From Chthonomonadales bacterium (GTDB taxonomy: Bacteria; Armatimonadota; Chthonomonadetes; Chthonomonadales; CAJBBX01): 64,000 bases of DNA. Positions within the stretch are counted from its first letter, which is position 1, and each line of letters opens with the position of its first letter. The position numbers and the translations under genes are program-made. Below the pieces are notes generated by a model. That model did no database searches. It had not been told where the DNA came from and worked only from the letters and a program-made list of their open reading frames with translations. Shown here one piece after another: positions 6,045 through 28,877 of this stretch. Where the stretch lies: the NCBI GenBank assembly GCA_020849275.1, contig JADLGO010000064.1, forward strand, positions 6,289 through 70,288, read 5' to 3'.

Positions 6045-6162
6045 ATCGCCCGCTCGCGCCGCTACGCGGCCCACTGAGAGGGCCGGGCGGCGCGGCCGGC
6101 GAACAGAGGGCTCGGATGCCGCGGCGCCGCGCCGCGCGCCCATGGAGGAGGCCCTGAACACG

Positions 6163-12022: not shown

Positions 12023-14107
12023 CTATCGGCGAGCGCCCCGCATCAGCCGCAGCAGCTTCCCCTCGCCCGGGCCGAGGTCCACGTGTGCCACCCCATCGCT
12101 GCCCAGTGGCGCGCCGGTCGCCGCGTCGCGCGCCAGGGCGCCCGGCGGGAGCCCGACGCTGGCGAGCGCGGGCGCGCGCGTGTCGCGGTTCACCACGCAC
12201 AGGTAGTCGCCGCCGTCCGCGTGCCGGAACGCCTGCGCGTCGATGGAGGGCGAGTCGCACCGGGCCAGGTCGTTCGGACGCCAGCGCAGTCGCAGGAGCG
12301 TCGGGGCAAGCCGGCGCACCGCCGCGTTCACCGCGCGCACCTCGGCGTAGCGGTGGTCCATCGGCCGCAGGTCCATGTCCACGATTCCCTGGAGCCACTC
12401 GCCCTGCACGCCGGTCGTTGACTGGTAGAGGAAGTAGACGATCCCCTTGGCGCCGTGCGCGATCGCCTCCCAGACCATCAGCCGGACCTCGTTGGGCGCG
12501 GGGATGGCGCGCGGCGCGGGCTTGCCGAACCCGAAGCACTGCGGAATGACCCAGACCGGCCGCCCTCCGGCGATCTCCCGCGCGCGGTCGACGGCGGCCA
12601 CGTAGCTCTCGAGTGGCGCTCCGGCCAGGGGCGCGCCCGTCACCGGGTAGATGTCCACCAGCAGCACGTGGTAGCCGACCTCCCGGAAGAGCTCGGCATA
12701 GTCGCCCAGCAGGCAGGTGAAGCCGGGATGGCCGGGGTCCAGGGCCTCCACCACGCGCTTGGCGAGAGCGATCCGGGCGCGATTCTCCGGCGTGGGCGAG
12801 GGCTCGTCCACCAGGTAGTAGCCCAGAGTGGCCGGGTGGCGGCGCACGCCGTTGACGGCCTCGCGGAACTCGCGCACCCAGTCGCGCGACTCGAAGGAGG
12901 CCGGGTTCCAGAGGAAGCTGTTCACCTCGTCGAGGTGCACGATGACGCGGATGCCGTGGCGGCGCGCAGCGTCCAGAAGCGCCCGCCGGTGGTCGCGCGG
13001 GGTCCAGTTGGCGATGACCGTGTCCACTCCGAGGCCCTGAAGGTCGGCCAGCGTGCGCTCGAAGTAGGCGGCCGCGCGGGCCGGGTCGTCCACGTGGCGG
13101 TTGATGTAGCTGGCGTCCTCCTCCCAGAAGTACCAGGCCCCCAGGGGGAATCGCTCCGCCGCGCGCACCGGCGCCGGGCGCCAGCGCAGCCGGGCGTCCA
13201 CGAACAGTGGCGCCTCGCGCACCTCCGGCGCCTCGCCGGGCCGCTCGGCGGTCAGGCGCAGTCGGAACGCGCCGCCCCGGCCCAGCGCGTCGCGCGCCGC
13301 GGCGGGCAGGTCGGCGGAGGCCAGCGAGCGGCGGCCCGCCGGCTCCTTGCACGTCGGAAGCACCGCCGCGGCCACGCGGCCGCGCGCGTCCAGCAGGTCG
13401 ACGCGCGCCGTCGCCGGCGCGGCCAGCGTCCAGCGGAGGGTGAAGGCGTCGAGCACCCCATCGGGCGTCGGGCAGAAGCTGCTCGGCTCGGCGGTAACGG
13501 TGTCGGCAAGCGTTCCGGTGACGCGCAGGTTGTCCACGAGCACGGGCGCGGCGACGGAGAAGGAGTCGATGTAGCCCAGCCGCATCGGGCCGGGCGCGAT
13601 GCCTCGGCCGTAGTCGTCGCGGGCGGCGACGTGGCCATCCACCTCCAGGGTGCGCCCGTCGGGCCCGTAGGTGAAGGCGACGTGCCGCCACCGCCCGACG
13701 GGCCAGTCAACCCCGGCGGCCATCAGCCAGCGCCAGCCGCCATCGAAGACGCCGAACCGCAGTTCCGCGGTGTCACGATCCCAGTAGATCACGCTCGCGC
13801 CGCGCCACGCGCCCGCGGCGCCCACGTCGGTGAGCAGCATCCAGTGGCGTCCGTCGTGGCGCGGGACGATGGCCTCGTGGGGCGCCAGGTCGAGCTCCAC
13901 GCGGCCTGCCTCGCGCGGGAAGGCCGTCGCGGGATAGCGCACGCAGGCCGCGCCGGCCAGGCGCGCGGCGCGACCCGTGGGGCCCTCGACGAGGGTGGCC
14001 CCGCCCTCCAGCGTCGACGCCGGCGCGGCGTCGAAGGTGTCGAACAGGCTCTCGTAGGCGGCGGGCGCGCCCGAGAGCACGGTGCAGAGCAGCAGCGGAA
14101 CGAGCAT
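12023..14107 (-). CDS. Secreted LamG/concanavalin-like lectin domain + TIM-barrel glycosidase-like protein
   Basis: Track ORF trimmed to the ATG at 14105-14107 (signal MLVPLLLCTVLSGAPAA). The N-terminal about 230 aa look LamG-like (WRHVAFTYGPDGRTLEVDGHVAA). The C-terminal barrel has GYYLVDEP and GAKGIVYFLYQ. Confidence 0.65.
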   Translation of the reverse strand: MLVPLLLCTVLSGAPAAYESLFDTFDAAPASTLEGGATLVEGPTGRAARLAGAACVRYPATAFPREAGRVELDLAPHEAIVPRHDGRHWMLLTDVGAAGAWRGASVIYWDRDTAELRFGVFDGGWRWLMAAGVDWPVGRWRHVAFTYGPDGRTLEVDGHVAARDDYGRGIAPGPMRLGYIDSFSVAAPVLVDNLRVTGTLADTVTAEPSSFCPTPDGVLDAFTLRWTLAAPATARVDLLDARGRVAAAVLPTCKEPAGRRSLASADLPAAARDALGRGGAFRLRLTAERPGEAPEVREAPLFVDARLRWRPAPVRAAERFPLGAWYFWEEDASYINRHVDDPARAAAYFERTLADLQGLGVDTVIANWTPRDHRRALLDAARRHGIRVIVHLDEVNSFLWNPASFESRDWVREFREAVNGVRRHPATLGYYLVDEPSPTPENRARIALAKRVVEALDPGHPGFTCLLGDYAELFREVGYHVLLVDIYPVTGAPLAGAPLESYVAAVDRAREIAGGRPVWVIPQCFGFGKPAPRAIPAPNEVRLMVWEAIAHGAKGIVYFLYQSTTGVQGEWLQGIVDMDLRPMDHRYAEVRAVNAAVRRLAPTLLRLRWRPNDLARCDSPSIDAQAFRHADGGDYLCVVNRDTRAPALASVGLPPGALARDAATGAPLGSDGVAHVDLGPGEGKLLRLMRGARR

Positions 14108-16122: not shown

Positions 16123-18069
16123 ATGATGGCGCGCACCGACGGCACGGCACGGGTCCACTCCTTCCTCACCCTGCCTCGCTCGCGAGCGGCGCGACGGCTC
16201 GCCGCGCTGCTGACGGGACCGCTGCTGCTGGCCCTCGGGCCGGGCTGCGGCTCCGGCGGCGGGCGGTCCGGCAGCACGCTCCTCGTGAACTCACTCGCCG
16301 ACACGGCGCAGCCCGCGGTCGGCACCGTGACTCTGCGCTCGGCGGTCGCCGCCGCCCGGTCAGGCGACACCATCGCCTTCGACTCCACCCTTGACGGCGG
16401 TACCATCGACCTGGCCATCGTGGGCGAAGCGCACTCGACGCTGAAGGGTGAGACCTACGCCGGGATGGCGTTCGGCGGCTATGAGGATCGCGACTACGGC
16501 CCCTCGGCCCTCTACGCCCGCAAGAACCTGGAGATCGACGCGTCGCGCCTGCCGCACGGCGTCACGCTGCGCTGGAAGGGCGGTGACGCGAGGCCGGCCC
16601 GCGTGCTGGCCGTCTACGGCGATCTGGCGATGAAAAACGTCACCGTGACCGGCGGAGTCTCGGCGGCCGGCGCGCTGGCGGGCGGCTCGCAGCCCTACAC
16701 GCTAGCTCGCGGCGGCGGGATCGCCGTATGGGGCACCGCGACGCTCCAGCGATGCACGATCGCCGGGAACCGGTGCGTCGGCGACGCCGTAGCAAGCCGC
16801 GACCGCGGCACGTATGGCGGGGGCATCTACGCGAACGGTCTCGTCCTCACCGACTGCGTGGTGAGCGGCAACTCGGCCGTGGGCTACGGCGCGGCCGGAG
16901 GCGGCATCTACTCGGTGGGCGGCGTCGAGAACGTGGGGGGGCGCGGCAACGACACCTCGCTCGCGCGGTGCACCGTCAGCGGGAACCGGGTGACTGGCCA
17001 GCACGCCTATGGCGGCGGCGTCTTCACCCTCAGCGGCGGGCCGAACAACCTGGCGACGATGTACCTGGCCAACTGCACCATCGCCCGCAACCTCGCCGAG
17101 GACAACCCGGCGCTGCCGGAGGCCGGACCGCACTACTACCGCGGCGGGGGCGTCTACATGGGCGGCGGGTCGCTCTCGGTGACGAGCTGCACCATCGTGG
17201 AGAACGAGGTGACCGGCCACGCCGCCGTGTTCTCGGGCAAGCCGAACATCGGCGGCGGAGGCATCGCCGCCACCATCGGCAACGCGCATACGGTGGAGGA
17301 CGTGTGGGTGCAGCACTCCGTGGTCGCCGGGAACCGGCTCAACGGCGCGGCGGAGGATTGGTTCGCCGGCTCCCTGCTGAACTTCACCAGCGGTGGCTAC
17401 AACCTGTTTGGCGTCCTCGACTTCACCCAGATCCTGGCGCCGTGCCCCGACTGGACCTTCCTGAGCCGCAGGCACTACCCGAAGGCGGGCGACCGTGACG
17501 GCGTCGCGCTGGCGCAGGCCCTCGATCTGGGCGGCACCACGCGTCACGCCTCCGTCGTGTCGGCGGGCACCGACGCGGGCCAGCCCGCCGTGCTCTCCTA
17601 CACGCCAGGTGCGCTGGCCCTCGACCGCATCCCGCCCGCCGCCTACGCGCTCGACTACGTCCACGCCGGCTACACGGGTTTCGGCAAGGACACCGACGAC
17701 TTCCTCAACCACGTTCTGGCTCGCGTGCGCGCGGTCTACGGCTCCACTCTCGGCGCGGGTTTCGGTGCGGGTTTCGGCGACATGACGGGCGTCACCTGGT
17801 ACGGTCCGCGCGTCGCCTGGCCGAGCGAGCCGGCCAACGCGCCGTGGATCGCCTTCTGGCGCCAGCTCGACGCCGAGATCGGCGACCGGCTCGGCATGGC
17901 GGGCCTCGGGGACGAGTTCTGGGGTAGCTTCGCCAGCGGCCCCCTGGGTGGCCAGATCACGATGCAGGTCCAACGCAGTCGCCGGACCTACCGGCTCGTC
18001 GGCGCCGACCAGGCGGGTCGGAGCCGCCCCTCCGGCGGGCGCGGCGACGTCGGCGCCATCGAGCGATAG
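16123..18069 (+). CDS. Lipoprotein with right-handed parallel beta-helix repeats (choice-of-anchor-Q-like)
   Basis: Trimmed to ATG 16123 (GGAGG 7 nt upstream). Lipobox LLLALGPGC. Repeated GGGI(Y/A)...C(T/V)(I/V)xGN turns (e.g. RCTIAGNR, DCVVSGNS, RCTVSGNR, NCTIARN, SCTIVENE) and the GGYNLFG motif. Confidence 0.7.
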   Translation: MMARTDGTARVHSFLTLPRSRAARRLAALLTGPLLLALGPGCGSGGGRSGSTLLVNSLADTAQPAVGTVTLRSAVAAARSGDTIAFDSTLDGGTIDLAIVGEAHSTLKGETYAGMAFGGYEDRDYGPSALYARKNLEIDASRLPHGVTLRWKGGDARPARVLAVYGDLAMKNVTVTGGVSAAGALAGGSQPYTLARGGGIAVWGTATLQRCTIAGNRCVGDAVASRDRGTYGGGIYANGLVLTDCVVSGNSAVGYGAAGGGIYSVGGVENVGGRGNDTSLARCTVSGNRVTGQHAYGGGVFTLSGGPNNLATMYLANCTIARNLAEDNPALPEAGPHYYRGGGVYMGGGSLSVTSCTIVENEVTGHAAVFSGKPNIGGGGIAATIGNAHTVEDVWVQHSVVAGNRLNGAAEDWFAGSLLNFTSGGYNLFGVLDFTQILAPCPDWTFLSRRHYPKAGDRDGVALAQALDLGGTTRHASVVSAGTDAGQPAVLSYTPGALALDRIPPAAYALDYVHAGYTGFGKDTDDFLNHVLARVRAVYGSTLGAGFGAGFGDMTGVTWYGPRVAWPSEPANAPWIAFWRQLDAEIGDRLGMAGLGDEFWGSFASGPLGGQITMQVQRSRRTYRLVGADQAGRSRPSGGRGDVGAIER

Positions 18070-18106
18070 GTCGCGCGCCGCGGCGCGTGATTTCCAGCGG
18101 GACCCC

Positions 18107-18135
18107 TTGACAAACGCCGCATGTCGCCCTATCAT
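18107..18135 (+). promoter_or_regulatory. Sigma70-like promoter TTGACA-17 nt-TATCAT of the LacI-led operon
   Basis: TTGACA at 18107-18112 and TATCAT at 18130-18135, spacer 17 nt, 37 nt upstream of the lacI-family ATG. Confidence 0.6.
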
Positions 18136-18136
18136 G

Positions 18137-18159
18137 AAACTAGTTTACTAAACTAGTTT
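18137..18159. promoter_or_regulatory. Putative operator: two 10-bp palindromes AAACTAGTTT (18137-18146, 18150-18159) separated by ACT
   Basis: Read directly. The whole 23-mer is itself palindromic around the central C. It starts 2 nt after the -10 hexamer, so it covers the expected transcription start. Confidence 0.6.
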
Positions 18160-18171
18160 GGCAGGCGAGAG

Positions 18172-19251
18172 ATGCGGCGCAGGTCGACGGGCAAAGACGT
18201 GGCGGAACGGGCCGGCGTGTCACTGACCACGGTCTCCTTCGTGCTGAACGGTCGGACCGACCGGGCCATCAGCGACGAGACGCGCGAGCGCGTGCTCGGC
18301 GCCGCCCGCGAGCTCGGCTACCGGCCCAACGGCCTGGTACGCGGCCTGGTACGAGGTCGCACCCAGACCGTAGGCGTCGTCGTTCCCCGCCTCGACAGCA
18401 GCTTCCACGCCACCATCGTGCAGGGCATCCAGGAGGTCTGCGCCCGTCGCGACCACCGGATTCTGCTGGCCGACTCCCGCCATGAGCTCGAGTACGAGCA
18501 GCGACAGGTGGACCTCTTGCTCGAGCACCGCGTGGACGGCATCATCTCCGTGGCGATGCCGGACGACGCGCCCGCCGAGCGCACGCGCTCCTGGGTGGGG
18601 CGGCTGGCGGCCGAGGGGGTGGCCTTCCTGGTGGTGGACGACCACTCGTTCGGCGACCTCGTGGACTGCGTCGTCTCCGATGACCTTCGCGGGGCGCGCC
18701 TGGCGGCCGAGCACCTGATCGCGCTCGGGCACCGGCGCATCGCGCATCTGAGCGCCGGGCAGGCGATGAGCTCCTCTCGCGACCGCCGCGCGGGCTACCT
18801 GGCGGCCCTCGCCGCCGCAGGCGTTGCGCCGGACGAGCGCCTGATCGCCGGCGGATCCTACTTTCTGCGCGCCGAGGAGCTGCGCCGGGCCGCCGAGGCG
18901 CTCCTCGCGCTCCCCGACCGCCCCACCGCCCTCTTCGCCGCCAACGACGACCTGGCGGCCGAGGCGATCGCCGCCGCGCGCGACCTCGGCCTGCATGTGC
19001 CTGGCGACCTGGCCGTGGCGGGCTACGGCAACACGGAGGTCGGCCGTCACTTGGAGATCACCAGCATCCATCAGGAGCCGCTGGAGATGGGCCGGCGCGC
19101 CGCCCTGCGGCTCTCGACCCGCCTGGAGGAGCGGGACCTGCCTCCCGAGATCGAGCTTCTCCCCGTGCGTCTCGTCGTCCGCGCGTCCTCGGGCGCGCGG
19201 AACCTCGCGGCCGCCCCTCCTGCCGGCCGCGCCGCTTCGGACAGCGCCTGA
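18172..19251 (+). CDS. LacI family transcriptional regulator
   Basis: N-terminal [24 protein letters not shown], then a periplasmic-binding-protein-like sugar-binding fold (VDGIISVAM..., [14 protein letters not shown]..., VAGYGN). Confidence 0.9.
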
Positions 19252-19315
19252 GCGCCCCTGGACGGGCGCGGCGCAGCAGGCATCGACACTCGCCCATACA
19301 AGGAGGCTCCACGCC

Positions 19316-20101
19316 ATGCGACGCAGAAGGACCGGCTTCACCCTGATCGAGCTACTCGTCGTCATCGCCATCATCGCGATCCTCGCGGCCATCCTGTTCC
19401 CGGTGTTCGCCCAGGCCCGCGAGAAGGCCCGCGCCGTCTCCTGCCTCAGCAACATGAAGCAGGTCAGCCTGGCGATGCTGATGTACGCGCAGGACTCCGA
19501 CGAGAGCTTCGCAATCAACCGGCGCTTCGGGCCCGATCCGGCGGCGCCCCAGTGGTACTACACCTGGCGCTACGCCGTGCAGCCCTACGTCAAGAGCGAC
19601 CCGCTCTGGCTCTGCGGCTCCGCTCCGCAGCACCTCAACGAGTTCAAGTGGACCGAGCTCAACGGGCCATTCATCGTGCCGCAGGGCTGCATCGCGGACG
19701 GATCAATGACCATCGACGACTACAACGCCACCCCGCGGCGTTGGCGCGGCTTCGCCAACTACGCCTCCAACGGCCACTGGTCGTGGTACGACAATCGCCT
19801 GGGCCTGGCCTACTTCGAGAAGCCCGCGGGCATCATCCTCCTCGTTGACATGCGCGACTTCTGGCCCGACATGGAGGCCTGGACGATCCCCTGGAACTTC
19901 GGCGACGGCTACGGCGCCATCGGCTGCTACCACAGCCGGGGCAACAACTGGGCCTTTGTCGACGGGCACGTCAAGTGGCAGCGCATCGCGCAGACGCTGG
20001 CCCCCGATTTCCAGTGGAACAACTACGCCGAGACCGACATGCCGGGAATTCCCTACACTGTCGCCGGCTTGCAGGCAGCCATCCCGCCCGCGTGCCGCTG
20101 A
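19316..20101 (+). CDS. Prepilin-type N-terminal cleavage/methylation domain protein with DUF1559-like body and H-X9-DG motif
   Basis: Track ORF trimmed to ATG 19316 (AGGAGG 9 nt upstream). MRRRRTG|[32 protein letters not shown], then [22 protein letters not shown], then the C-terminal [13 protein letters not shown] (H-X9-DG). Confidence 0.85.
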
Positions 20102-20112
20102 AGCGCCGCTCC

Positions 20113-20143
20113 GGAGCCCGGCCCGCCGGCCGGGCCGGGCTCC
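20113..20143 (+). promoter_or_regulatory. GC-rich stem-loop inside the operon (possible attenuator or RNA-stability element)
   Basis: GGAGCCCGGCC (20113-20123) pairs perfectly with GGCCGGGCTCC (20133-20143) around a 9-nt loop. It lies between the pseudopilin-like stop (20101) and the next start (20169). There is no U-tract. Confidence 0.4.
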
Positions 20144-20168
20144 CCGCGCCGCCGAGAGGAGCGCACCC

Positions 20169-20384
20169 ATGCGAAGGGAGATCCCCGCGCCCGTGGTGAT
20201 CGGCATTCTGGTGGTGATCCTGGGCGCCATCGGCCTGGTCGTCTTCCGGTCCTTCCAGGGCCCCCCGGAGGGCACCGGGATCAGCGACGCGGACCTGCGC
20301 AAGCAGGTACAGTACCGGCAGCAGCACGGCATGCTGCCGACCGGCGCACCGCCGCCGGAAGGCCGGCCGCCCGCCCGCCGGTAG
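20169..20384 (+). CDS. Small single-pass membrane protein (71 aa)
   Basis: ATG 20169 with GAGAGGAG 7 nt upstream. MRREIPAPVVIGILVVILGAIGLVVFRSF, then a Pro/Gly-rich tail. Analogous in position and topology to 25451-25756. Confidence 0.55.
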   Translation: MRREIPAPVVIGILVVILGAIGLVVFRSFQGPPEGTGISDADLRKQVQYRQQHGMLPTGAPPPEGRPPARR

Positions 20385-20405
20385 GGGGCCGGAGGGAGCC
20401 CTATC

Positions 20406-21239
20406 ATGCGTACCGAACCAACGCCGGAGGAGATCGCCGCCTACCGCGACGACGGCTTCGTGGTGCTGCACGGCTTCCTCGAACCCGCCGAGCTGGAGGA
20501 GTGGCGCGCGGCCGTGGAGGAGGCCGTCGCGGCGCGGCAGGGAGCCGGCCTGCCGGGCGGCCGGTGGCGGCGCGACGAGGAGCACTCGGACGACTACTAC
20601 GAGCGCGTGTTCGTGCAGCGTGTGAACCTCTGGATGGATAGCCCGCGCCTGCGCGGCCTGCTGCTCGATGAGCGCATCGGCCGCCTGGCCGCCGACCTGG
20701 CCGGCGTGGGCGGCGTGCGAATCTGGCACGATCAGGCGCTCATCAAGCCGCCGTGGGCCAACCCGACGGCATGGCACCTCGACGCGCCGTACTGGTCGTT
20801 CTCCTCGCGCGACGCCATCAGCCTCTGGCTCGCGCTCGACGACGCCACCGTGCGCAACGGATGCATGTACTTTCTGCCCGGTACCCACCGGCGGGCCACC
20901 TACGACAACGTGTCGATCGGGCGCAACCTGGGCGCGCTCTTCGGGGTCTATCCCGACTGGGCCTCGGAGGAGCCGCGTGCCGCCGAAATGCGCGCCGGCT
21001 CGTGCTCGTTCCACAACGGACTGGTGGCGCACGCGGCGGGACCCAACATGACTCCCCGGCCGCGCCGGGCGATGACGTGCGGCTTCATGCCGGACGGAGC
21101 GACCTTCAACGGCAAGCAGAACATCCTTTCGGACGCGCAGGTCGCCCGGCTCACGGTTGGCGATCCGCTGACGGACGAGCGGCAGAACCCCCTGGTCTTC
21201 TCGCGGGGCTCCGGCGCCGGGCAAGGAGGGCCGCATTGA
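20406..21239 (+). CDS. Phytanoyl-CoA dioxygenase (PhyH) family Fe(II)/2-oxoglutarate oxygenase
   Basis: GGAGGGAG 8 nt upstream. YRDDGFVVLHGFL, an HxD triad element in WHLDAPYW and a distal His in SFHNGLVAHAAGPN. Confidence 0.75.
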   Translation: MRTEPTPEEIAAYRDDGFVVLHGFLEPAELEEWRAAVEEAVAARQGAGLPGGRWRRDEEHSDDYYERVFVQRVNLWMDSPRLRGLLLDERIGRLAADLAGVGGVRIWHDQALIKPPWANPTAWHLDAPYWSFSSRDAISLWLALDDATVRNGCMYFLPGTHRRATYDNVSIGRNLGALFGVYPDWASEEPRAAEMRAGSCSFHNGLVAHAAGPNMTPRPRRAMTCGFMPDGATFNGKQNILSDAQVARLTVGDPLTDERQNPLVFSRGSGAGQGGPH

Positions 21240-22177
21240 GCGCGCACGCCCCGGAGCCCGTGGACTCGCCGGAGCCGGCGGCGACCGCGGAGCGAGCGCC
21301 GCGTCGCCGCGTACTGCTGACGACCGACTGCGGGACCGAGATGGACGATCAGTGGGCGCTGGCGCACCTGGCGCTCTCGCCGGAGTGGGACCTGGTGGGC
21401 GTCGTGACGACGCACGCGCCCAACCTGGCCGGTTCCGCCGCCGAGCGGACGGCCGAGGCGGCGCGCGAGGTGCTGCGGCGCGTCGCGCCGGGGTGCGGCG
21501 TGGAGGTGCGCGCGGGCTCCAGCGTCCCCCTGCCGGACGCGAGGACACCACTCGCGAACCGGGGCGTCGAGCGCATCCTGGAGCGCGCGGCAGTGCGCGG
21601 GCCGGAAGGGCGCCTGACGGTGCTTGCCATCGGCGCGGCCACCGACGTCGCTTCCGCCCTGCTGGCGGACCCCACGCTGGCGGAGCGGATCGAGGTCGTG
21701 GCGATGGGGTTCCAGGGCCGCAGTGTCGGTGGCGACGAGTGGAACGTGAAGAACGACCCGGCGGCCTGGCGGGTGCTCCTGGGGTCGCGCGTGCCGCTGA
21801 CGGTGGGCGCCGCGGACGTCTGCAAGCGCCGCCTTCTGATGACCGGCGAGCGGGCCTGCGATCGGTTCGCGGGCCGCGGGCCGGTCGGCCGCTACCTCGC
21901 CGACCTGCTGATCGAGTGGCTCGGCGCCAACGGCGCGACGGCCAGCCTCGTCACCGGTCGGTCGGACGCCTGGCCCGTGTGGGACGAGATCGTCGTCGCG
22001 CACCTACTCGGGCTCTCCGCCGTGCGCCGGCATCCGCGCCCCCTGCTCCGCGAGGATCTGACCTTCGGAAGCCGGTCCGACGCGGCCGCGGACCGGGGCA
22101 TCGACTGGATCACGGACGTCGACGATGCGGGCCTTTGGGAGGACCTGGCCGGCAAGCTGCTCCCTGGTGGTCGGTAG
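21236..22177 (+). CDS. Nucleoside-hydrolase-fold protein with a divergent Asp-cluster motif
   Basis: No in-frame ATG near the 5' end. TTG at 21236 overlaps the PhyH stop (TTGA) and has AAGGAGGG 5 nt upstream. VLLTTDCGTEMDDQWALAHL occupies the position of the canonical DxDxxxDD motif. Confidence 0.6.
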   Translation: MSAHAPEPVDSPEPAATAERAPRRRVLLTTDCGTEMDDQWALAHLALSPEWDLVGVVTTHAPNLAGSAAERTAEAAREVLRRVAPGCGVEVRAGSSVPLPDARTPLANRGVERILERAAVRGPEGRLTVLAIGAATDVASALLADPTLAERIEVVAMGFQGRSVGGDEWNVKNDPAAWRVLLGSRVPLTVGAADVCKRRLLMTGERACDRFAGRGPVGRYLADLLIEWLGANGATASLVTGRSDAWPVWDEIVVAHLLGLSAVRRHPRPLLREDLTFGSRSDAAADRGIDWITDVDDAGLWEDLAGKLLPGGR

Positions 22178-24098
22178 GAGCGAGCCGACGCCGCGCGCCG
22201 GCGCGAGTGTCCCCCCGGAGCGCGCGCTGGCGCCCCCCGGCCGTCGTGCGGGGGGTTCGCTCACGGCGGCGGCCTGGGTCGGCGTCGCCCTGGCGCCCCT
22301 CGTCTGCATCTGGGTGTTCCGCGCCGAGATCCTCTACCACTCGGCCGACCTGGCGTCCAACGCGCTGAGCCTTGCGGCGGTGGGGGTGCTGCTCGTCCTG
22401 CTGGCCCTGCGCGCCATCCTCCCGCGCCTTCTGAGCGCCCGCCGCGTGCTGCTGATCTACGCCGCGGTCGCCGGCACGGTGGGAATCTGCACGATGGGGA
22501 TGGTGCAGTTCCTGATCACCACTCTGGCCGCGCCGTTCTGGTTCGCCAGTCCGTCCAATCGCTGGCAGGAGTTCCTGCCGCTGATCCCGGCCTGGGCCGC
22601 GCCCCGGTCGCCCGAGGTGGTGCGCGGGTTCTTTCTTGGCCGCTCCAGCCTCTACGCCCCCGGGGTGTGGCGGGCCTGGCTGACGCCGGCGCTCGCCTGG
22701 GGAGCGTTCCTGGCCGCGCTGCTGGCGGCACAGTACTGCCTGGCGCACCTCTTCTACCCGCGCTGGGCGCGGCAGGAGCGGCTCGCCTTTCCGGTGGTGC
22801 AGGTGCCCTTGGCGCTCGTGAACGCAGGCGCGTCCGGCCGCGGCGCGCTGCTCGCCGGCGCCGGGATCGCGCTCGCCGTGCAGGGGCTCAACACCGTCCA
22901 TCACGCCGTGCCGGCCGTGCCGGGGCTGCGCGTGCTGCCCGTGGAGTTCGGCTCCACCCTGCCGGAGCCGTGGAACGCGGTCGGCACGCTGTGGTACAGC
23001 TTCTACCCCTGCATCATCGGCCTTTCGGCGCTCGTGCCCACCAACATCCTCTTCTCGTGCGTGTTCTTCTTTCTCCTGACCAAAGGCGAGAACGTGGCGG
23101 CGCAGGTCTGGGGCCTGCGGCAGGTCGGGCCGGCCGGCGCCGGATTCCCCTACGGCGGCGAGCAGGCGCAGGGCGCCGTGCTGGCGTTGGTGCTCGTGAT
23201 CGTCTGGTCGGCCCGCGCTTCGCTGCGCGCCTCCCTTCGGCGTCCGACGGACCGCGCCGCCTGGGCGGTGCTGGCCCTCGCGACCGCGGCCCTGTGCGGC
23301 TTCGGCCTGGCCCTCGGCATGCGGCCGGTTTCGGTCGGCCTGCTGTTCGGGCTGTTCCTGCTCTTCATGCTGGGCTGCGCCTGGCTGCGGGCGGCCGTCG
23401 GGCCGGTGTGGAACCCGGGCAACGATGTGGCCTGGTGGGTGCGCGGCGTGGCCGCCGGCGGCCTGACGCCGGCCGACGGCGTCGGGTTGGCCTACCTGCG
23501 CTGGTTCTCGTTCGGCGATTGGCGGGCGCATGGCCTGCCGACGTACGCGGACATGATGCGGCTCTCCGAGGCGGCCGGGATCCCCCGGCGGCGGCTCGCC
23601 GGCGTGCTGGCGGCGGGCTCGCTCCTCGGAATCCTCGCCAGCCTGTGGGTCGCGCTGGACGTCTACTACCGCTACGGGGCCGCCACGGCGCTGACCGACC
23701 CGTGGCGCACCTACCAGGGGCGTCTCGCCTTCGAGAATCTGCGCTCGCAGATGGACGGCGTGGCGCCCGCGCCGGACCTGCCGCAGTGGGAGGCGGCCGC
23801 GTTCGGCCTCCTCGCGGTTCTGCTGCTGCAGGGCGCCAACAACCGGCTGCTCTGGTGGCCGTGGCACCCGGCGGGGTTCGTGATGGCGCAGACCGGCTCG
23901 CTCGAGTGGTTCTGGTGCCCGATGGCCATCGCGGGCGTCGCCAAGGCGCTGATCCTGCGCGCCGGCGGCATGCGCCTCTACCACCGCGCGCTGCCCTTCT
24001 TCGTCGGCCTGATCCTGGGCGACTACGCCCTCAGCGTGGCGCTGGCCCTCGTCGGCGCCGCGCTGCGTCTACCCATGTACAAACCCTTCCCGATCTGA
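22125..24098 (+). CDS. Large polytopic membrane protein (at least 12 predicted TM segments), family unknown
   Basis: A long run of hydrophobic helices, e.g. AAWVGVALAPLVCIWVF, LLIYAAVAGTVGICTMGMVQFLI, ILFSCVFFFLLT, VSVGLLFGLFLLFMLGCAWL. The start is uncertain: ATG 22125 overlaps the upstream gene by 53 nt, and GTG 22167 is an alternative. Confidence 0.65.
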   Translation: MRAFGRTWPASCSLVVGRSEPTPRAGASVPPERALAPPGRRAGGSLTAAAWVGVALAPLVCIWVFRAEILYHSADLASNALSLAAVGVLLVLLALRAILPRLLSARRVLLIYAAVAGTVGICTMGMVQFLITTLAAPFWFASPSNRWQEFLPLIPAWAAPRSPEVVRGFFLGRSSLYAPGVWRAWLTPALAWGAFLAALLAAQYCLAHLFYPRWARQERLAFPVVQVPLALVNAGASGRGALLAGAGIALAVQGLNTVHHAVPAVPGLRVLPVEFGSTLPEPWNAVGTLWYSFYPCIIGLSALVPTNILFSCVFFFLLTKGENVAAQVWGLRQVGPAGAGFPYGGEQAQGAVLALVLVIVWSARASLRASLRRPTDRAAWAVLALATAALCGFGLALGMRPVSVGLLFGLFLLFMLGCAWLRAAVGPVWNPGNDVAWWVRGVAAGGLTPADGVGLAYLRWFSFGDWRAHGLPTYADMMRLSEAAGIPRRRLAGVLAAGSLLGILASLWVALDVYYRYGAATALTDPWRTYQGRLAFENLRSQMDGVAPAPDLPQWEAAAFGLLAVLLLQGANNRLLWWPWHPAGFVMAQTGSLEWFWCPMAIAGVAKALILRAGGMRLYHRALPFFVGLILGDYALSVALALVGAALRLPMYKPFPI

Positions 24099-24131
24099 TT
24101 GGCGGTGCGCGACGCGCCCGACACATGAACG

Positions 24132-25268
24132 ATGCGAGGCCCACTCATGCTGGCACTATGCGCGCTGGCCGCTCTCGGCCCCGAGGGAGCGGGAGATCGG
24201 CGCCGACTCGCTCCGGCCTTCCAGCCCGGACCGCGAACCTACAACTACGCCCCCTGCCTGGTGCGCGAGCCCGGCGCTCCCGCGTTGCACGCCTGGTACT
24301 GCGCGAACCGCACTCCGGGCGACGTCACCGACTACCTCTGTCACCGAAAGGCCACGCGGGTGAACGGGCGGTGGGAGTGGGGAGCCGAGGAGGTGGCGCT
24401 TGCTCCGGCCGAGCGCAGGGAGGCCTGGGACAGCCGGCACGCGTGTGACCCCGAGGTGGTGGCCGGGCGCTTTCGCTACCGCGGCCAGGACTGGCGCTAC
24501 GCGCTGCTCTACCTGGGGTGCGACGCCGAGCGCTGCACGCACAACCAGGTCGGCGTGGCCTTCGCGCGCTCGCTGGACGGGCCGTGGACCCGCTACCCGG
24601 ACCCGATCGTTCGCTACACGGAGCGGCCGGAGGGGGGAATCGTCGACGAGTACATCGGCTGGCCCGTCTACCGCTACTGGGGGGTGGGCCAGCCGGCGGC
24701 GCTCTCGCTGGACCGCGCCGGGCGCGTCCTCCTCTTCTTCTCGCGCGGCGAGGAGGAGCCCGGGGAGGAGATGGCCGTGGTGGACCTCTCGGACATGGAC
24801 CGCGGGGCGGTCGTGACCGAGCGCGCGAAGGTGCCGACGGCGGGGCTGTGGCCCTCGGCCGAGGCCGGCTCGCGCAGCCTCACCAACGTGGCCGTCGCGC
24901 TGGACGAGCAGCGCGGCCGGCTCTACATGGCGCGCGAAGATCTTCCCCCGGCCGATGGGCGGTTCCCCGGCTTCATCGCCGCCCGCAGTTCGCTGGCGTC
25001 GATCCCGTGGGCGGCCCTCCGCCGCGGTGAAGGAGCGTGGATCCCCATCGGCGACGTGGACGAGCCCCGCACCCTCTGGCCCCGCAACCACAACGCGACC
25101 CTCGCTAGGGACGTCTGGGGCCGCGTCCTCGAGCGGGATCGGCTGACCGTCGGCGTCTCGGTTGCCGAGACCTATGCCGCGGCTCCGCCGAGCTTCACAT
25201 GGCTCTGGACCTACCGGATCGTCCTCCTGGACTGGCCGACGGCGCCCTCGTCGAAGCCAGCGCGCTAG
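24132..25268 (+). CDS. Secreted five-bladed beta-propeller glycosidase-like protein (GH43/GH-F-like)
   Basis: Signal-like MRGPLMLALCALAALG. YNYAPCLV, SRHACDPEVV and VGVAFARSLDGPWTRYPDP are reminiscent of GH43-type propellers. Family not verified. Confidence 0.55.
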   Translation: MRGPLMLALCALAALGPEGAGDRRRLAPAFQPGPRTYNYAPCLVREPGAPALHAWYCANRTPGDVTDYLCHRKATRVNGRWEWGAEEVALAPAERREAWDSRHACDPEVVAGRFRYRGQDWRYALLYLGCDAERCTHNQVGVAFARSLDGPWTRYPDPIVRYTERPEGGIVDEYIGWPVYRYWGVGQPAALSLDRAGRVLLFFSRGEEEPGEEMAVVDLSDMDRGAVVTERAKVPTAGLWPSAEAGSRSLTNVAVALDEQRGRLYMAREDLPPADGRFPGFIAARSSLASIPWAALRRGEGAWIPIGDVDEPRTLWPRNHNATLARDVWGRVLERDRLTVGVSVAETYAAAPPSFTWLWTYRIVLLDWPTAPSSKPAR

Positions 25269-25365
25269 GAGCGCCCCAGGGGAGCCGCGGCCCCGCGCGA
25301 TACGCGCGGGGCCGCTCTGCGCTGGCTCGCTGTTCTGTGGCGCAAAATGGTGCGGCGCGAATCGC

Positions 25366-25394
25366 TTGACAAGACCGGCGGGCTGTGTTAGCAT
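25366..25394 (+). promoter_or_regulatory. Sigma70-like promoter TTGACA-17 nt-TAGCAT
   Basis: TTGACA at 25366-25371 and TAGCAT at 25389-25394, spacer 17 nt, upstream of the small-TM/pseudopilin-like gene pair. Confidence 0.55.
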
Positions 25395-25403
25395 GGCGAC
25401 AAC

Positions 25404-25415
25404 CTCTCTAGAGAG
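25404..25415. promoter_or_regulatory. Putative operator: perfect 12-bp palindrome CTCTCTAGAGAG (copy 1)
   Basis: Read directly, 10 nt downstream of the -10 hexamer. An identical 12-mer (13-mer with the preceding C) is at 27680-27691. Confidence 0.6.
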
Positions 25416-25450
25416 ATAGCGGAGGCAGCAGAAATGGAGGTGATCTGCCC

Positions 25451-25756
25451 ATGGCTGGCAAGTCGGGTTCCGCGTCGAGCTCTCCACTTGCGGCGCCGCT
25501 GCCGCCCCAGGTCGTCGTCGTGGCCGCGCTCCTGGTGATCACGGTGATCGGATGGGTGGCCTACCATGCGTTCGGGCCCATGGCCCAGCCCCCGACCTTC
25601 ACGGTGAGTGACCAGAAGGCGTGGGTCGCGGACCTTGCCCGAAAGAGCGGTGGCGACTTCTCCAGGCTCGGCCCGGCCGAACAGAAGAGGCTCGACGCAA
25701 TCTCGCTCGGAAACGGAGCCCGGATGCTTCGAAGCGCCTATGAGCGGCGCAAGTAG
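25451..25756 (+). CDS. Small single-pass membrane protein (101 aa)
   Basis: ATG 25451 (GGAGG 10 nt upstream). TM helix [21 protein letters not shown], then a soluble tail. Immediately precedes the second pseudopilin-like gene. Confidence 0.55.
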
Positions 25757-25766
25757 GAGGAGAGGA

Positions 25767-26531
25767 ATGCGAACCCACCGGTCGTCAGAGCACGTGTCGG
25801 GATTCACGCTCATCGAGCTGCTAGTCGTCATCGCGATCATCGCGATCCTTGCAGCGATCCTGTTCCCGGTCTTTGCCCAGGCCCGCGAGAAGGCACGTCA
25901 GACCTCCTGCCTCTCGAACATGAAGCAGATCGCCCTGGCGATGCGCATGTACAGCCAGGACAACGATGAGACCGCGTCGCTCGCGCGCTACGCCCCCTAC
26001 TTCTGGGACGGGGCCGTGTGGCCCGAGACGCACACCTGGCGGATGGCGGTGCAGCCCTATATCAAGAATAAGGGCCTCACCCGCTGCCCGTCCAACGCCT
26101 ACTACAACGCCGGCGTGGAGGTCGAAGAGCCCGTCTTTCGCTCGTACGCCATGAACTCCGCCGCACTCTACGGCGACAAGTACGCCGAGGCCTCCATCAC
26201 CGAGCCCGCCGAGATCATCCAGGTCGCGGAGTGCCGCTACCAGTACCCCGACCTCTATCCGCAGATCGAGAGCCCGTTCTCGTCCTTCCTCTACTCCTCC
26301 GAGCCCGAGCCGACGCCGGACTCCCCTCTGGGAGTCATGCAGACGCACACCGGCCAGAGCAACTACGCGTTCTTCGATGGGCACGCCAAGTCCATTCGCC
26401 CGGTCGCCACGCTGAACTCGCACACCCCCTGGACGATGTGGTATTGCACCGGGTGGGCGAGCGAGGGCGACGCCGAGTACAACCGGCAGGGCCTGGTCGG
26501 GCAACTCCTGGCGCACGCCGAGTACCGCTGA
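25767..26531 (+). CDS. Prepilin-type N-terminal cleavage/methylation domain protein with DUF1559-like body and H-X9-DG motif
   Basis: Trimmed to ATG 25767 (GGAGGAGAGG just upstream). ...HVSG|[67 protein letters not shown] (H-X9-DG). Confidence 0.85.
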
Positions 26532-26554: not shown

Positions 26555-26588
26555 ACGACCGGGCCGCTCAGCGCGGCGGCCCGGTCGT
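26555..26588. terminator. Bidirectional terminator-like hairpin between convergent genes
   Basis: ACGACCGGGCCGC (26555-26567) pairs perfectly with GCGGCCCGGTCGT (26576-26588) around an 8-nt loop. The right arm overlaps the last codons of the regulator gene. Confidence 0.5.
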
Positions 26589-27614
26589 TCCCCGCTCGAT
26601 GAGCCGCGTCGGCAGCGTCACGTCGCGCACGGCCTCGCCGCGCGAGAAGGCAACCACCGCCCGGGCCGCCTCCTCGCCCAGCTCGCGTCGCGGCTGGTAG
26701 ATGGTGGTGAGGCCGCACGGCCAGTAGGCCGCCACCGAGAAATCGCCAAAGCCCACCACGCTCAGATCGTCCGGCACGGCAAGGCCGCGATCGCGCGCTG
26801 CCTTGATGGCTCCGATGGCCGCCAGGTCGCTGGCCGCCACGAGCGCGGTGGGGCGCTCGGGCCGGGCGAGCAGCTCCGAGGCGCCCTGGTAGCCCCGCTC
26901 CTCCCGAAAGCCGGCGCCCGCCTCCATGTCGGGGGAGAGGCCGCGCGCGCGCATCGCGGAGGTGAAGCCGCGCTGCCGCTCGATGCCGTCCACGTTGTCG
27001 GGCCAGCCCGTGAGGAACCCGATGCGCGAGTGCCCCAGCGCCGCCAGATGCTCCACGGCCAGGACGGTGCCGCCCGCGTTGTCCACGACGATCGAGGGCA
27101 CGGCGCGCCTGCCCTGATAGCGGTTGAGCGCCACCACACGGCAGCCGAGGTCCTTCAGGCGCTCGACGATCGCCGAGTCCTCGCGGTCGGCCACCAGGCA
27201 GGCGACGCAGGTCTCGCCGTCGACGAGCTCGACGCGGTCGATCACCGCGGCGGGCTGTCCCAGGCGCTCCATGCCGGTCTCGTAGCCGTCAAGAACGTCG
27301 GGCAGGTAGAGGGGATCCAGCCGCTGCCAGAGCGCCGGCACGAGCAGAGCCGCGGCCGGGACAGCGCGCGAGCCGTCGCCGTTGGGGCCGTGCGGCAGAA
27401 CGAAGGTGCCCTTGCCGGGCACGCGCTGCAGCAGGCGGTCGGTCACCAGGCTGCCGACCGCCTGGCGCACCGTCATGTAGGCGACTCCGAAGCGGCGCGC
27501 GAGCTCGTGCTCGGCAGGGATGCGCTCGCCCGCCCGCCACACGCCGGCCTGGATCTGGCTGCGCAGGCTTCGCTCCACCTCGCGGTGCTTCGTTCGGCTG
27601 TTCGTCGATGTCAT
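26568..27614 (-). CDS. GntR-type winged-helix regulator fused to a LacI/PBP1-type sugar-binding domain
   Basis: N-terminus RIPAEHELARRFGVAYMTVRQAVGSLVTDRLLQRVPGKGTFV (GntR HTH). C-terminus resembles LacI-family ligand domains (HSRIGFLTGWPDN..., ALVAASDLAAIGAIKAARDRGLAVPDDLSVVGFGD). Confidence 0.85.
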   Translation of the reverse strand: MTSTNSRTKHREVERSLRSQIQAGVWRAGERIPAEHELARRFGVAYMTVRQAVGSLVTDRLLQRVPGKGTFVLPHGPNGDGSRAVPAAALLVPALWQRLDPLYLPDVLDGYETGMERLGQPAAVIDRVELVDGETCVACLVADREDSAIVERLKDLGCRVVALNRYQGRRAVPSIVVDNAGGTVLAVEHLAALGHSRIGFLTGWPDNVDGIERQRGFTSAMRARGLSPDMEAGAGFREERGYQGASELLARPERPTALVAASDLAAIGAIKAARDRGLAVPDDLSVVGFGDFSVAAYWPCGLTTIYQPRRELGEEAARAVVAFSRGEAVRDVTLPTRLIERGTTGPPR

Positions 27615-27830: not shown

Positions 27831-28877
27831 ATGGCCAACCCGTTCCTCGGAGTCCTGCTTCACGCGGTCGGTGGCCTCGCCGCCGGCAGCTTCTACGTGC
27901 CGTTTCGCAGGGTGCTCCGCTGGGCCTGGGAGAGCTACTGGCTCGTGCAGGGCGTTCTGGCGTGGCTCGTCATGCCGTGGGTGGGTGCGCTGCTGACGGC
28001 GCCGCGCGCCGTTGAGATCCTCCAGCGCAGCTCCGGGTCCAGCGTGGCGCTGGCCTACCTCTTCGGCGTGCTCTGGGGCGTGGGCGGCCTGACGTTCGGG
28101 CTGAGCATGCGTTACCTGGGCCTATCGCTCGGCTATGCGGTGGCGCTCGGATTCTGCGCCGCCTTCGGCACGCTCATCCCGCCCATCGCGCAGGGCAAGG
28201 CGGGCAGCCTGCTGGCCACCGCCGGTGGCCTCACCGTGCTCGCCGGCATCGCCGTCTGCCTGGCCGGCATCGCCGTGTGCGGCTACGCGGGCATCCGCAA
28301 GGAGCGCGAGCTGACCGACGCGCAGAAGCACGAGGCGGTGCGCGAGTTCGCGCTGGGCAAAGGCTTCGCGGTGGCCATCTTCGCCGGCATCATGAGCGCC
28401 TGCATGGCCTTCGGCATCAGCGCGGGCGCGCCGATCGCCCATATGGCCGTGCGGCTCGGGACGCCGGCCATCCACCAGAACAACCCGGTCTTCATCCCGA
28501 TCATGGCGGGCGGATTCACCACCAACGTGGCCTGGTGCCTGGCGCTCAACGTGCGCAACCGCACCCTGCGCGACTACGTGACCGGCTCCCCGGCGCTGCT
28601 CGCGCGCAACTACCTGTTCGCCGGGTTGGCCGGCGTCATCTGGTACCTGCAGTTCTTCTTCTACGGCATGGGCACCACGCAGATGGGACGCTACGACTTC
28701 TCGAGCTGGACCATCCATATGGCTTTCATCATCGTCTTCAGCAACCTTTGGGGCATCGGCTTCCACGAGTGGCGCGGCGTGCGGCGGGTCACCATGGCGG
28801 TCGTCTGGGCCGGCATCGCGGTGCTCATCCTCTCCACGGTGATCATCGGGGCCGGCAACTACCTGGCGTCGCGATGA
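27831..28877 (+). CDS. rhaT: L-rhamnose/proton symporter
   Basis: GAAGGAGGG upstream. Strong resemblance to E. coli RhaT along the whole length (SFYVPFRRVLRWAWESYW, GLSMRYLGLSLG, VIWYLQFFFYGMG, FSSWTIHMAF). Confidence 0.9.
   Translation: MANPFLGVLLHAVGGLAAGSFYVPFRRVLRWAWESYWLVQGVLAWLVMPWVGALLTAPRAVEILQRSSGSSVALAYLFGVLWGVGGLTFGLSMRYLGLSLGYAVALGFCAAFGTLIPPIAQGKAGSLLATAGGLTVLAGIAVCLAGIAVCGYAGIRKERELTDAQKHEAVREFALGKGFAVAIFAGIMSACMAFGISAGAPIAHMAVRLGTPAIHQNNPVFIPIMAGGFTTNVAWCLALNVRNRTLRDYVTGSPALLARNYLFAGLAGVIWYLQFFFYGMGTTQMGRYDFSSWTIHMAFIIVFSNLWGIGFHEWRGVRRVTMAVVWAGIAVLILSTVIIGAGNYLASR

Follow-up and report, generated by a model that had tools for sequence, protein, structure and literature searches.

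A conserved LacI-led gene cluster pairing a pilin-like envelope protein with a putative OPT-fold importer in the Armatimonadota: a candidate self-repressed catabolic operon

Here we describe a cluster of seven plus-strand genes, headed by a LacI-type repressor gene, in a 64,000-nt stretch of DNA from a Chthonomonadales bacterium (assembly GCA_020849275.1, contig JADLGO010000064.1, positions 6,289-70,288 of the forward strand). We call the whole of this stretch the window and count positions from its first letter. The window has a G+C content of 72% and lies on what we term contig C64 of a 4.8-Mb genome that is 99.9% complete. Its proteins have their nearest public relatives among entries labelled Armatimonadota or Chthonomonadales, and the host is a member of the Armatimonadota, a bacterium of soil or hot-spring type. 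The cluster occupies positions 18172-25268 and encodes, in order, the repressor, a prepilin-type DUF1559 protein (hereafter PIL), a small single-pass membrane protein, a PhyH-family dioxygenase, an enzyme of the inosine-uridine nucleoside hydrolase (IUNH) fold, a 657-aa polytopic membrane protein with DUF6785 and DUF6784 domains, and a beta-propeller protein that we term P7 (Table 1). A first-pass annotation of this DNA had reported seven compact LacI-led genes on one strand, separated by at most 67 nt or overlapping, and the list of open reading frames (ORFs) with their translations bears this out, each gene lying at the coordinates first given for it. The intergenic distances are, in gene order, 64, 67, 21, -4, -53 and 33 nt: the IUNH-fold gene starts at a TTG within CATTGAG, overlapping the PhyH stop codon by 4 nt, and is itself overlapped by 53 nt by the gene for the 657-aa protein. 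Third-position G+C is ∼0.9 in all seven genes, which supports real coding, and a codon-position G+C model made for this genome recovers the identical gene set. No described pathway with this set of genes was found, as the annotation had also maintained.

The cluster was compared with orthologous loci from the same family and two other genera, L006 and L007 (two NCBI assemblies) and L073. The order repressor, PIL, small protein, IUNH-fold enzyme, DUF6785 protein and P7 is kept in all three genomes, and so in three genera when that of the window is counted; the flanking genes are wholly different among the four loci. Because the six-gene order recurs in three genomes with different flanks, we conclude that chance does not account for the cluster. 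The PhyH gene is present in none of the three orthologous clusters, and we place it outside the conserved unit for that reason: on this comparison it is a local, lineage-specific insertion and the conserved unit consists of six genes. A place for PhyH in the conserved pathway is thus rejected, and the seven-gene operon proposed in the first-pass annotation stands as a conserved LacI-led unit of six. Conservation within the cluster is highest for PIL (67-70% identity between the window and L006 or L007), followed by the DUF6785 protein (66-67%, these being its closest homologues), the repressor (61-63%), P7 (61-62%, encoded there by a final gene of 363-365 aa, again with no Pfam domain), the IUNH-fold enzyme (59-61%) and the small protein (33-42%; 70 aa in both loci). 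Further afield, a search of 301 Armatimonadota genomes found P7 in 8 of the 15 genomes of the window's family, representing five genera, and every copy of at least 58% identity has a DUF6785 orthologue directly upstream. One DUF6785 homologue of 60% identity is left with the small ORF and the IUNH-fold gene, the pilin and the repressor being gone, and one of 45% identity retains the PIL-DUF6785 pair. A pattern scan also picked up DUF6785 homologues at 54-57% identity from five further Armatimonadota genomes, none with another operon gene within 10 kb; these belong to other orthogroups and are uninformative about this operon.

A consensus scan of positions 17900-25800 returned two sigma-70-like sites only, against 0.3 in shuffled sequences, one directly ahead of the repressor gene (Table 1) and one at 25366-25394. 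At the position equivalent to the first, L006 and L007 carry TTGACA-17-TATAAT or TATAGT, TATAAT being the form in L006. Directly after the -10 box in the window, 13 nt upstream of the lacI ATG, stand the two AAACTAGTTT palindromes, an arrangement that corresponds to a LacI/GalR-type palindromic operator at a regulated promoter, as a site predicted from sequence only. The AAACTAGTTT 10-mer has two copies in the 4.8-Mb genome, both at this operator; because it occurs at this promoter only, we read it as the single predicted operator of a self-repressed operon. Tandem repeats of like design lie at the same place in L006 (AAAGTACTTTACT and GATGTACTTTACT) and in L007 (AAGTAGTTTAGT and AACCTACTTTACT), so that the design of promoter and operator is kept across the orthologous loci though its sequence has changed. 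A second conserved element is the GC-rich stem-loop immediately 3′ of the PIL stop codon. Perfect hairpins of 13-15 bp follow the PIL stop in all three operons tested, those of the window, L006 (z = -4.7) and L007 (z = -3.2), and their sequences are unrelated while their position is conserved. Such a pattern points to a conserved RNA element, one that may separate the PIL part of the transcript from the remainder. At the other end, the promoter-like site at 25366-25394 directly follows a terminator-like hairpin, and the unit is taken to end there. With tightly spaced or overlapping genes, one promoter-like site ahead and one terminator-like site behind, a single transcription unit is plausible.

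Table 1. Predicted features of the cluster and its regulatory sites; positions are those of the window unless a contig is named.
Feature	Position	Strand	Basis or remark
Sigma-70-type promoter, TTGACA-17-TATCAT	18107-18135	+	11/12 consensus positions
Predicted LacI operator, two perfect AAACTAGTTT palindromes with 13-bp period	18137-18159	+	Read from sequence
LacI/GalR-family repressor, 359 aa	18172-19251	+	Pfam LacI HTH, Peripla_BP_1, Peripla_BP_3
Prepilin-type DUF1559 / H-X9-DG protein (PIL), 261 aa	19316-20101	+	Pfam N_methyl, SBP_bac_10/DUF1559
GC-rich stem-loop, 13 bp, without U-tract	20113-20143	+	Centroid structure -32 kcal/mol
Single-pass membrane protein, putative PIL partner, 71 aa	20169-20384	+	Translation; no Pfam match
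Examples of similar small putative PIL partners	20169-20384 (window), C23:65114-65332, C31:46901-47107, C64:120459-120641		
PhyH-family Fe(II)/2-oxoglutarate dioxygenase, 277 aa	20406-21239	+	Pfam PhyH, 131 bits
IUNH-fold (IU_nuc_hydro) enzyme, 313 aa	21236-22177	+	Pfam, 87.8 bits
DUF6785/DUF6784 polytopic membrane protein, 657 aa	22125-24098	+	Pfam, 344 and 91 bits
P7, five-bladed beta-propeller, glycoside-hydrolase-like, 378 aa	24132-25268	+	AlphaFold2 model, Foldseek; no Pfam match
Terminator-like hairpin with T-rich tail	25309-25328	+	Pattern scan; 41 nt after last stop codon

It might be argued that these genes are mere neighbours without a common function, and that their order is conserved through recent common descent only. 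All four clusters do come from one family, and the more distant homologues of the DUF6785 protein and P7 are found in other contexts. However, the six genes remain next to one another, in overlapping or near-abutting frames, where everything around them differs among the four genomes; identities of 59-70%, or 33-42% in the case of the small protein, speak of long divergence; and the promoter-operator design and the position of the hairpin have outlasted changes in their sequences. We regard this explanation as highly improbable.

Both neighbouring regions deserve a brief description. Upstream, a beta-helix protein gene (16123-18069; 648-670 aa) is the only gene from osmC to the LacI promoter; since it is absent from the orthologous loci, we consider it to lie outside the operon. 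Downstream, a second module follows the operon immediately. It comprises the sigma-70-like promoter at 25366-25394, a palindrome, CTCTCTAGAGAG, a small ORF (25451-25756), a DUF1559 pilin-like gene (25767-26531), a divergent gene on the minus strand for a hybrid regulator with a GntR helix-turn-helix and a PBP1 domain (26568-27614), and a gene for a RhaT-type rhamnose-proton symporter (27831-28877).

The repressor itself carries the LacI helix-turn-helix (PF00356, 61 bits) and effector domains (PF00532, 98 bits; PF13377, 116 bits), and is probably autoregulated. Its top NCBIfam matches are RbsR, PurR and CytR. We rejected this ranking as a guide to the substrate, given that two unrelated LacI paralogues and one orthologue return the same one. 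Among the gene calls for the whole genome, which include 83 PIL genes and 30 LacI-family genes, a PIL gene lies directly downstream of the LacI gene in 20 of the 30 cases, where 0.7 would be expected (binomial p = 3e-26). The pilin-like gene is thus not peculiar to this operon but one case of a genome-wide rule. Our firm conclusion, read from gene order, is that sugar-type repressors are predicted to have PIL genes as their outputs, with a separate conserved PIL for each regulon.

The N-terminus of PIL, MRRRRTG/FTLIE, has the form of a class III signal peptide: a short basic leader, glycine at position -1, phenylalanine at +1 and glutamate at +5, and a hydrophobic helix. The protein matches PF07963 (N_methyl) with 38 bits and PF07596 (DUF1559) with 39.9 bits against a cut-off of 23.3, the latter match covering only positions 2-66 of the 268 in the profile. 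The C-terminal H-X9-DG motif is present and is followed by HVKW, and its N, D, G, H and K residues there do not vary across an alignment of seven PILs; the corresponding model, TIGR04294, is not among the NCBIfam matches of PIL at E ≤ 0.01. A profile built from the seven PILs matches the N-termini of the solved PilA, PilE and GspG structures (E down to 8e-14) over the first ∼60 residues only, and the same search found no solved relative for the body of the protein, nor any similarity to solved binding proteins. Among the paralogues, the first 63 residues are almost invariant and the central part of the body differs in both sequence and length; the best paralogue shares 52% identity with PIL, and the others 40% or less. 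DUF1559 proteins number in the dozens per Planctomycetes genome. In that group they have been described as hugely expanded and membrane-associated, with no function described (PMC8567305, PMC10632474).

The processing and assembly genes that the first-pass annotation had singled out for a check, namely a prepilin peptidase and pilus or type II secretion system (T2SS) genes, are present in the genome. There is one Peptidase_A24 gene, together with three full-length ATPases of the GspE/PilB type (T2SSE), further PilT-like ones, and three secretins. The three GspE/PilB-type loci lie at C1:129232-134415, C8:17056-20063 and C21:100571-103519, and two of them adjoin short pilin genes (133-144 aa) that are likely to encode true filament subunits. 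The prepilin peptidase gene (C1:133452) adjoins a 282-aa DUF1559-type gene.

The small protein that follows PIL reads MRREIPAPVVIGILVVILGAIGLVVFRSF... and has its own Shine-Dalgarno sequence, GGAG. Its 70-aa orthologues in L006 and L007 begin likewise, with MRREIPP and a transmembrane (TM) helix, and similar small membrane proteins follow at least 12 other PIL genes in the genome. Common to them are the pattern M-(K/R)-x-(E/Q)-(I/V)-x-P, a TM helix, a pair made up of an aromatic residue and Arg, and a tail rich in Pro and Gly, and on these features they look like a family of pilin partners that has as yet no name.

We turn now to the 657-aa membrane protein. An AlphaFold2 model made from an input of 52 homologues and paralogues reached a pLDDT of 87.6 and a pTM of 0.89. 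Foldseek comparison of this model with the PDB gave two significant matches, 7wsr and 7wst, both of the barley Yellow Stripe 1 transporter HvYS1 (E = 1.8e-8, probability 1.0, TM-scores 0.64/0.69). The superposition runs over the full length (660 columns) at 11-12% identity, and all other matches have E > 0.08. The predicted model thus has the fold of the oligopeptide transporter (OPT) and Yellow Stripe-like (YSL) families. At the level of sequence we found no such link: the OPT model PF03169 matched nothing in the genome even at E ≤ 1, and none of the PDB chain sequences was matched by a DUF6785-family profile. Membership of OPT proper is accordingly not established, and the likeness suggested by the model is one of fold only. 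HvYS1, a member of the OPT/YSL family, is a homodimer that imports by a proton-coupled, elevator-type mechanism (PMC9691689). With this predicted fold, the 657-aa protein is probably a secondary, proton-driven importer. The proximity of its gene to that of a pilin had raised the idea of a GT-C-type glycosyltransferase acting as a pilin glycosylase, which was rejected when the model matched only the Yellow Stripe fold.

The first-pass annotation had called this protein a large unknown membrane protein and the transporter candidate of the operon. The candidacy is upheld by the fold; the protein is, however, a member of Pfam families DUF6785 (PF20581) and DUF6784 (PF20580), which have 23-25 paralogues in this genome. 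The DUF6785 family is found in 98 of 121 sampled Armatimonadota genomes, mostly in several copies, and in none of 14 model genomes. In the literature searched we found no paper that mentions DUF6785, and the family has no described function. The operon neighbours of the paralogues include GFO_IDH_MocA oxidoreductases (six times), a PfkB kinase, short-chain dehydrogenases/reductases (SDRs), a sulfatase, and GH2-like and GxGYxYP proteins; they are mostly sugar-type catabolic genes, with no constant partner. In number these carriers about equal the ABC permease subunits of the genome (∼26). The known substrates of OPT transporters are peptides, glutathione and metal chelates.

One way of combining PIL with such a permease is to suppose that the DUF1559 body is a solute-binding domain, anchored by its pilin-type helix, which delivers substrate to the OPT-fold protein much as binding proteins serve TRAP or ABC transporters. 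There is a precedent in Sulfolobus, where sugar-binding proteins bear class III (pilin-type) signal peptides and have a dedicated assembly system (PMC3047682). The body of PIL is operon-specific and strongly conserved, its Pfam family bears the name SBP_bac_10, and the arrangement LacI-PIL-(small)-DUF6785 occurs four times in the genome (C9, C28, C31, C64). Set against this, most DUF6785 paralogues are without a PIL and most PILs without a DUF6785 gene, and the search turned up no solved binding protein similar in sequence to the PIL body. We think a binding-protein role of this kind improbable.

The enzyme encoded ahead of the putative importer matches PF01156 far above the cut-off of 34.2 bits, over positions 2-294 of the 297 in the profile. 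It has no signal peptide, and its best solved relative is 6ba0 (E = 4e-8). The calcium- and ribose-binding motif of the family, DxDxxxDD, is not conserved in it: the sequence is TDCGTEMDD, in which HMMER aligns Gly to the second Asp. This motif is invariant in the close orthologues, and that of locus L009 is TDVGAEIDD. Two further segments, EWNVxNDP and WPVWDE, are kept and align with ribose- and calcium-binding parts of the solved enzymes. The subfamily is widespread: over 560 relatives score E < 1e-20, and some of these also touch PF07632, the Sde182 NH-like model. In the operon and its relatives the gene of this enzyme lies directly upstream of the DUF6785 gene, overlapping in the window, L006 and L007, and separated by ∼100 nt in L009 and L073. 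In two Planctomycetota genomes (L075:6001-8451 and L076:6001-8627) a member of the same subfamily, at 51-55% identity, adjoins the gene of an SDF-family (PF00375) symporter; a member on a Bryobacterales contig has no adjoining SDF transporter. Because the partner is DUF6785 here and SDF in the two Planctomycetota, this hydrolase subfamily appears to pair recurrently with importers of unrelated families in different phyla.

An importer and a nucleoside-hydrolase fold encoded by overlapping genes bring nucleoside or ribonucleoside salvage to mind: the membrane protein would import the nucleoside, the enzyme would split it into base and ribose under the control of an RbsR/CytR-type sensor, and the propeller and pilin would be passengers. 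The IU_nuc_hydro score, well over the Pfam threshold, fits such a scheme, as do the ribose-contacting EWN..DP segment and a WD segment which, in the alignment, falls on the His-Asp of canonical enzymes. The RbsR, PurR and CytR matches of the repressor, which also seem to fit, carry no information, being ranked identically for unrelated LacI paralogues. Moreover, DxDxxxDD has become TDCGTEMDD in all orthologues, none of the four clusters contains a ribokinase, phosphorylase or deaminase, the propeller is conserved in the cluster as well as the hydrolase is, and a more canonical IUNH gene exists elsewhere in the window. We consider salvage an unlikely function for this operon. The more canonical gene in question (11080-12009; motif DTDIGDDVDD, 171 bits) is preceded by two large ORFs (727 and 895 aa) and adjoins a gene for a GH42-like/LamG protein on the opposite strand, the neighbouring stretches being 6142-11009 and 12023-14107.

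The dioxygenase inserted in the window's lineage matches PF05721 over the whole profile (positions 1-213 of 213) and has the HxD...H iron triad, its translation showing WHLD and FHNGLVAH. The genome holds 17-31 PhyH paralogues.

P7, the last protein of the operon, had been annotated as a secreted GH43-like propeller. The propeller is well supported: the AlphaFold2 model (pLDDT 89.3) has five blades, Foldseek matches it to propellers of the glycoside hydrolase (GH) families GH137, GH117, GH43, GH62 and GH32 (E = 1e-8 to 1e-6, TM-scores ∼0.5), and a P7-family profile matches GH117 3p2n (3.6e-9) and GH43 3qz4 (1.6e-6), though in part only, over residues 67-185 in the region of the second blade. 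Secretion is less certain. The N-terminal hydrophobic stretch is short, it lacks a clear charged n-region in the orthologues, and several members of the family are without it, starting at an LxPAFxP motif; from these sequences, secretion of P7 is not established. No Pfam model, and thus no Pfam GH model, matches P7 at E ≤ 0.01. With regard to the catalytic Asp/Asp/Glu triad of the GH43/GH117 clan, Asp101, Asp126, Asp189 and Asp270 are conserved and no Glu is invariant; His132, His315 and Arg313 are invariant, and the family has motifs of its own (WDSRHVCDPEVV, THNQVGVA, WGVGQP and RNHNA). A word-based search returned 28 proteins and gave the impression of a tiny orphan family, which was dispelled by an exhaustive profile search: the family, which has no Pfam model, comprises 313 clusters at E ≤ 1e-30, many of them multi-domain, and 1154 clusters at E ≤ 1e-3. 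The homologues (P0219-P0364) include multi-domain proteins of up to 2024 aa, some with a Ricin-B lectin domain, a type IX secretion system (T9SS) tail or a dockerin, fusions that are typical of carbohydrate-active enzymes, and homologues of 52-55% identity lie in loci with GH26 and CBM35 or with GH2 and an aldose epimerase. Given the fold, the profile link to GH117 and GH43, and the occurrence of homologues in GH26 or GH2 loci or in fusions with lectin, dockerin or T9SS parts, P7 looks like a glycosidase. A giant DUF6259 protein (∼1090 aa) is encoded a few genes upstream of P7-family genes at L007:1-1848 and L030:1-1223, in otherwise unrelated contexts.

Alternatively, PIL and its small partner could be a cargo-specific pseudopilin adaptor of type II secretion that serves to export the propeller and has no part in capture or import. 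The N-terminal 60 residues of PIL match GspG as well as type IV pilins, the genome has the three secretins and three GspE/PilB ATPases noted above, the close orthologues of P7 have a hydrophobic N-terminus, and other P7-family members, with T9SS tails or a dockerin, are clearly secreted. Yet several LacI-PIL units have no same-strand downstream gene that could supply the cargo, the signal peptide of P7 is weak and is missing in several homologues, and there are PIL-DUF6785 units without an exported enzyme (C28, C31). An export adaptor seems to us an improbable role for PIL.

Our preferred interpretation of this set of results, which we hold to be somewhat better than an even bet, is that the cluster is a self-repressed catabolic operon, found in Armatimonadota of the Chthonomonadales type, for the uptake and hydrolysis of a glycoside or N-glycosyl conjugate, equipped with a dedicated pilin-like envelope module. 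The substrate is probably a glycoside bearing a furanosyl or N-glycosyl group. When no inducer is present, the LacI-type repressor would sit on the tandem palindrome over the transcription start and keep the whole unit off, itself included; with inducer, the operon would be transcribed. The first products would be the DUF1559 pilin-like protein, cut by the sole prepilin peptidase of the cell, and its small membrane partner of 70 aa. Within the cell envelope PIL may then be the subunit, dedicated to this substrate, of a pseudopilus or type IV filament, capturing the substrate, as the first-pass annotation had also suggested, or passing it inward, and the conserved hairpin behind its gene probably raises the abundance of the upstream part of the transcript. 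The OPT-fold DUF6785/DUF6784 protein would import the compound over the inner membrane, probably with protons as Yellow Stripe 1 does. In the cytoplasm the IUNH-fold enzyme would cleave it, and the GH117/GH43-like propeller may take off another sugar before or after import. The PhyH dioxygenase would be an extra step gained in this lineage only.

Several observations weigh against this interpretation. The association of PIL with the putative importer is loose: a PIL gene lies within five genes at ∼10 of 24 DUF6785 loci, where 4.9 would be expected, which is a weak link (p = 0.015), and the DUF6785 homologues at 54-57% identity have no other operon genes nearby. The genes 3′ of other PILs are mixed and encode, among others, thioredoxin-like proteins, MFS transporters, esterases and amidohydrolases; because they are so heterogeneous, a general role of PIL in uptake is not demonstrated. 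As to the enzymes, LTTDCGTEMDDQWA stands in place of DxDxxxDD in the IUNH-fold protein, whose activity is not assured, and P7 has no invariant Glu such as the general acid of GH43. No substrate can be named, the nearest named relatives of the repressor being uninformative. Lastly, transporters of the OPT and SDF families normally carry peptides, chelates, amino acids and carboxylates, not neutral sugars, and the 'glycoside' may for this reason be an amino-acid-like or acidic conjugate.

Two generalisations were set aside. PIL as an obligate partner of DUF6785 is not supported, given the four such loci and the weak enrichment within five genes. Nor did a common theme emerge among 46 proteins encoded downstream of other PILs: none dominates, thioredoxin-like proteins appearing four times and the remainder singly.

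A bolder hypothesis, and one that we rate as rather unlikely, is that DUF1559 proteins at large are sugar-inducible, substrate-specific subunits of a nutrient-capture apparatus built on type IV filaments, each with its own LacI-type sensor, handing ligand to DUF6785-like importers. If this were true, the six-gene operon would be a complete minimal unit, made up of a sensor, a capture pilin with its 70-aa partner, an importer and two hydrolases, and the DUF6785 family would be the first OPT-fold branch to carry glycosides. DUF1559 pilin-like proteins are, to our knowledge, the largest family without an assigned function in the Armatimonadota and in the phyla of the Planctomycetes-Verrucomicrobia-Chlamydiae (PVC) group. 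A single predicted operator here joins members of three large families without an assigned function, namely DUF1559, DUF6785/DUF6784 and the P7 propellers. The ligand that releases the repressor would point to the substrates of the transporter, of the two hydrolases and perhaps of the pilin, which makes this small, single-repressor unit, found in several genera, a testable entry to all three families. It would also show how organic matter is taken up in a poorly known phylum, the Armatimonadota being, as far as we know, without SusCD systems.

How the proposed operon relates to known systems can be considered part by part. PIL resembles the DUF1559/H-X9-DG proteins (PF07596, TIGR04294) in its G/FTLIE site, its N-terminal helix region of 60 residues and its H-X9-DG motif, and like the DUF1559 families of Planctomycetota, Verrucomicrobiota and Armatimonadota it belongs to a very large set of paralogues, with 83 copies in this genome. 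It differs from GspG in a body about twice the size that is without a solved relative, and from pilins and T2SS pseudopilins in that its gene is tied to a sugar-type repressor and lies outside any pilus or T2SS cluster. Precedents in which pilin-type processing or filaments have a part in acquiring nutrients, and not in motility or adhesion, are the bindosome of Sulfolobus and the uptake of polysaccharides in association with fibres in Planctomycetes (PMC5394234). In contrast to the Sulfolobus bindosome, the partner carrier proposed here is a secondary one and not an ABC transporter, and the likeness is by analogy.

The hydrolases stand in a comparable relation to their nearest families. With the IU-nucleoside hydrolases (PF01156; RihA/B/C, IU-NH, 6ba0) the IUNH-fold enzyme shares its fold family and the EWN..DP and WD segments, whereas its motif is changed to TDCGTEMDD and its gene lies beside transporters rather than among the nucleoside-salvage genes. 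P7 shares the five-bladed propeller of GH117 (the 3,6-anhydro-alpha-L-galactosidase 3p2n), GH43, GH137 and GH62, and departs from these enzymes in TM-scores of only ∼0.5, in lacking both a Pfam GH match and an invariant Glu, and in having its own motifs. The membrane protein shares its predicted fold with HvYS1 (PF03169, TC 2.A.67), whose transport mechanism we assume for it by analogy; unlike the OPT/YSL proteins, the DUF6785 family is multiplied ∼25-fold and resides in sugar-type catabolic loci. Taken as a whole, the cluster follows the same logic as the LacI/GalR sugar operons and the polysaccharide utilisation loci of Bacteroidota, in which a sensor, envelope parts, an importer and glycosidases are encoded together. 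Where those systems use SusC/SusD, ABC or phosphotransferase (PTS) parts, none of which is present here, this operon has a pilin-like envelope component and a putative OPT-fold importer.

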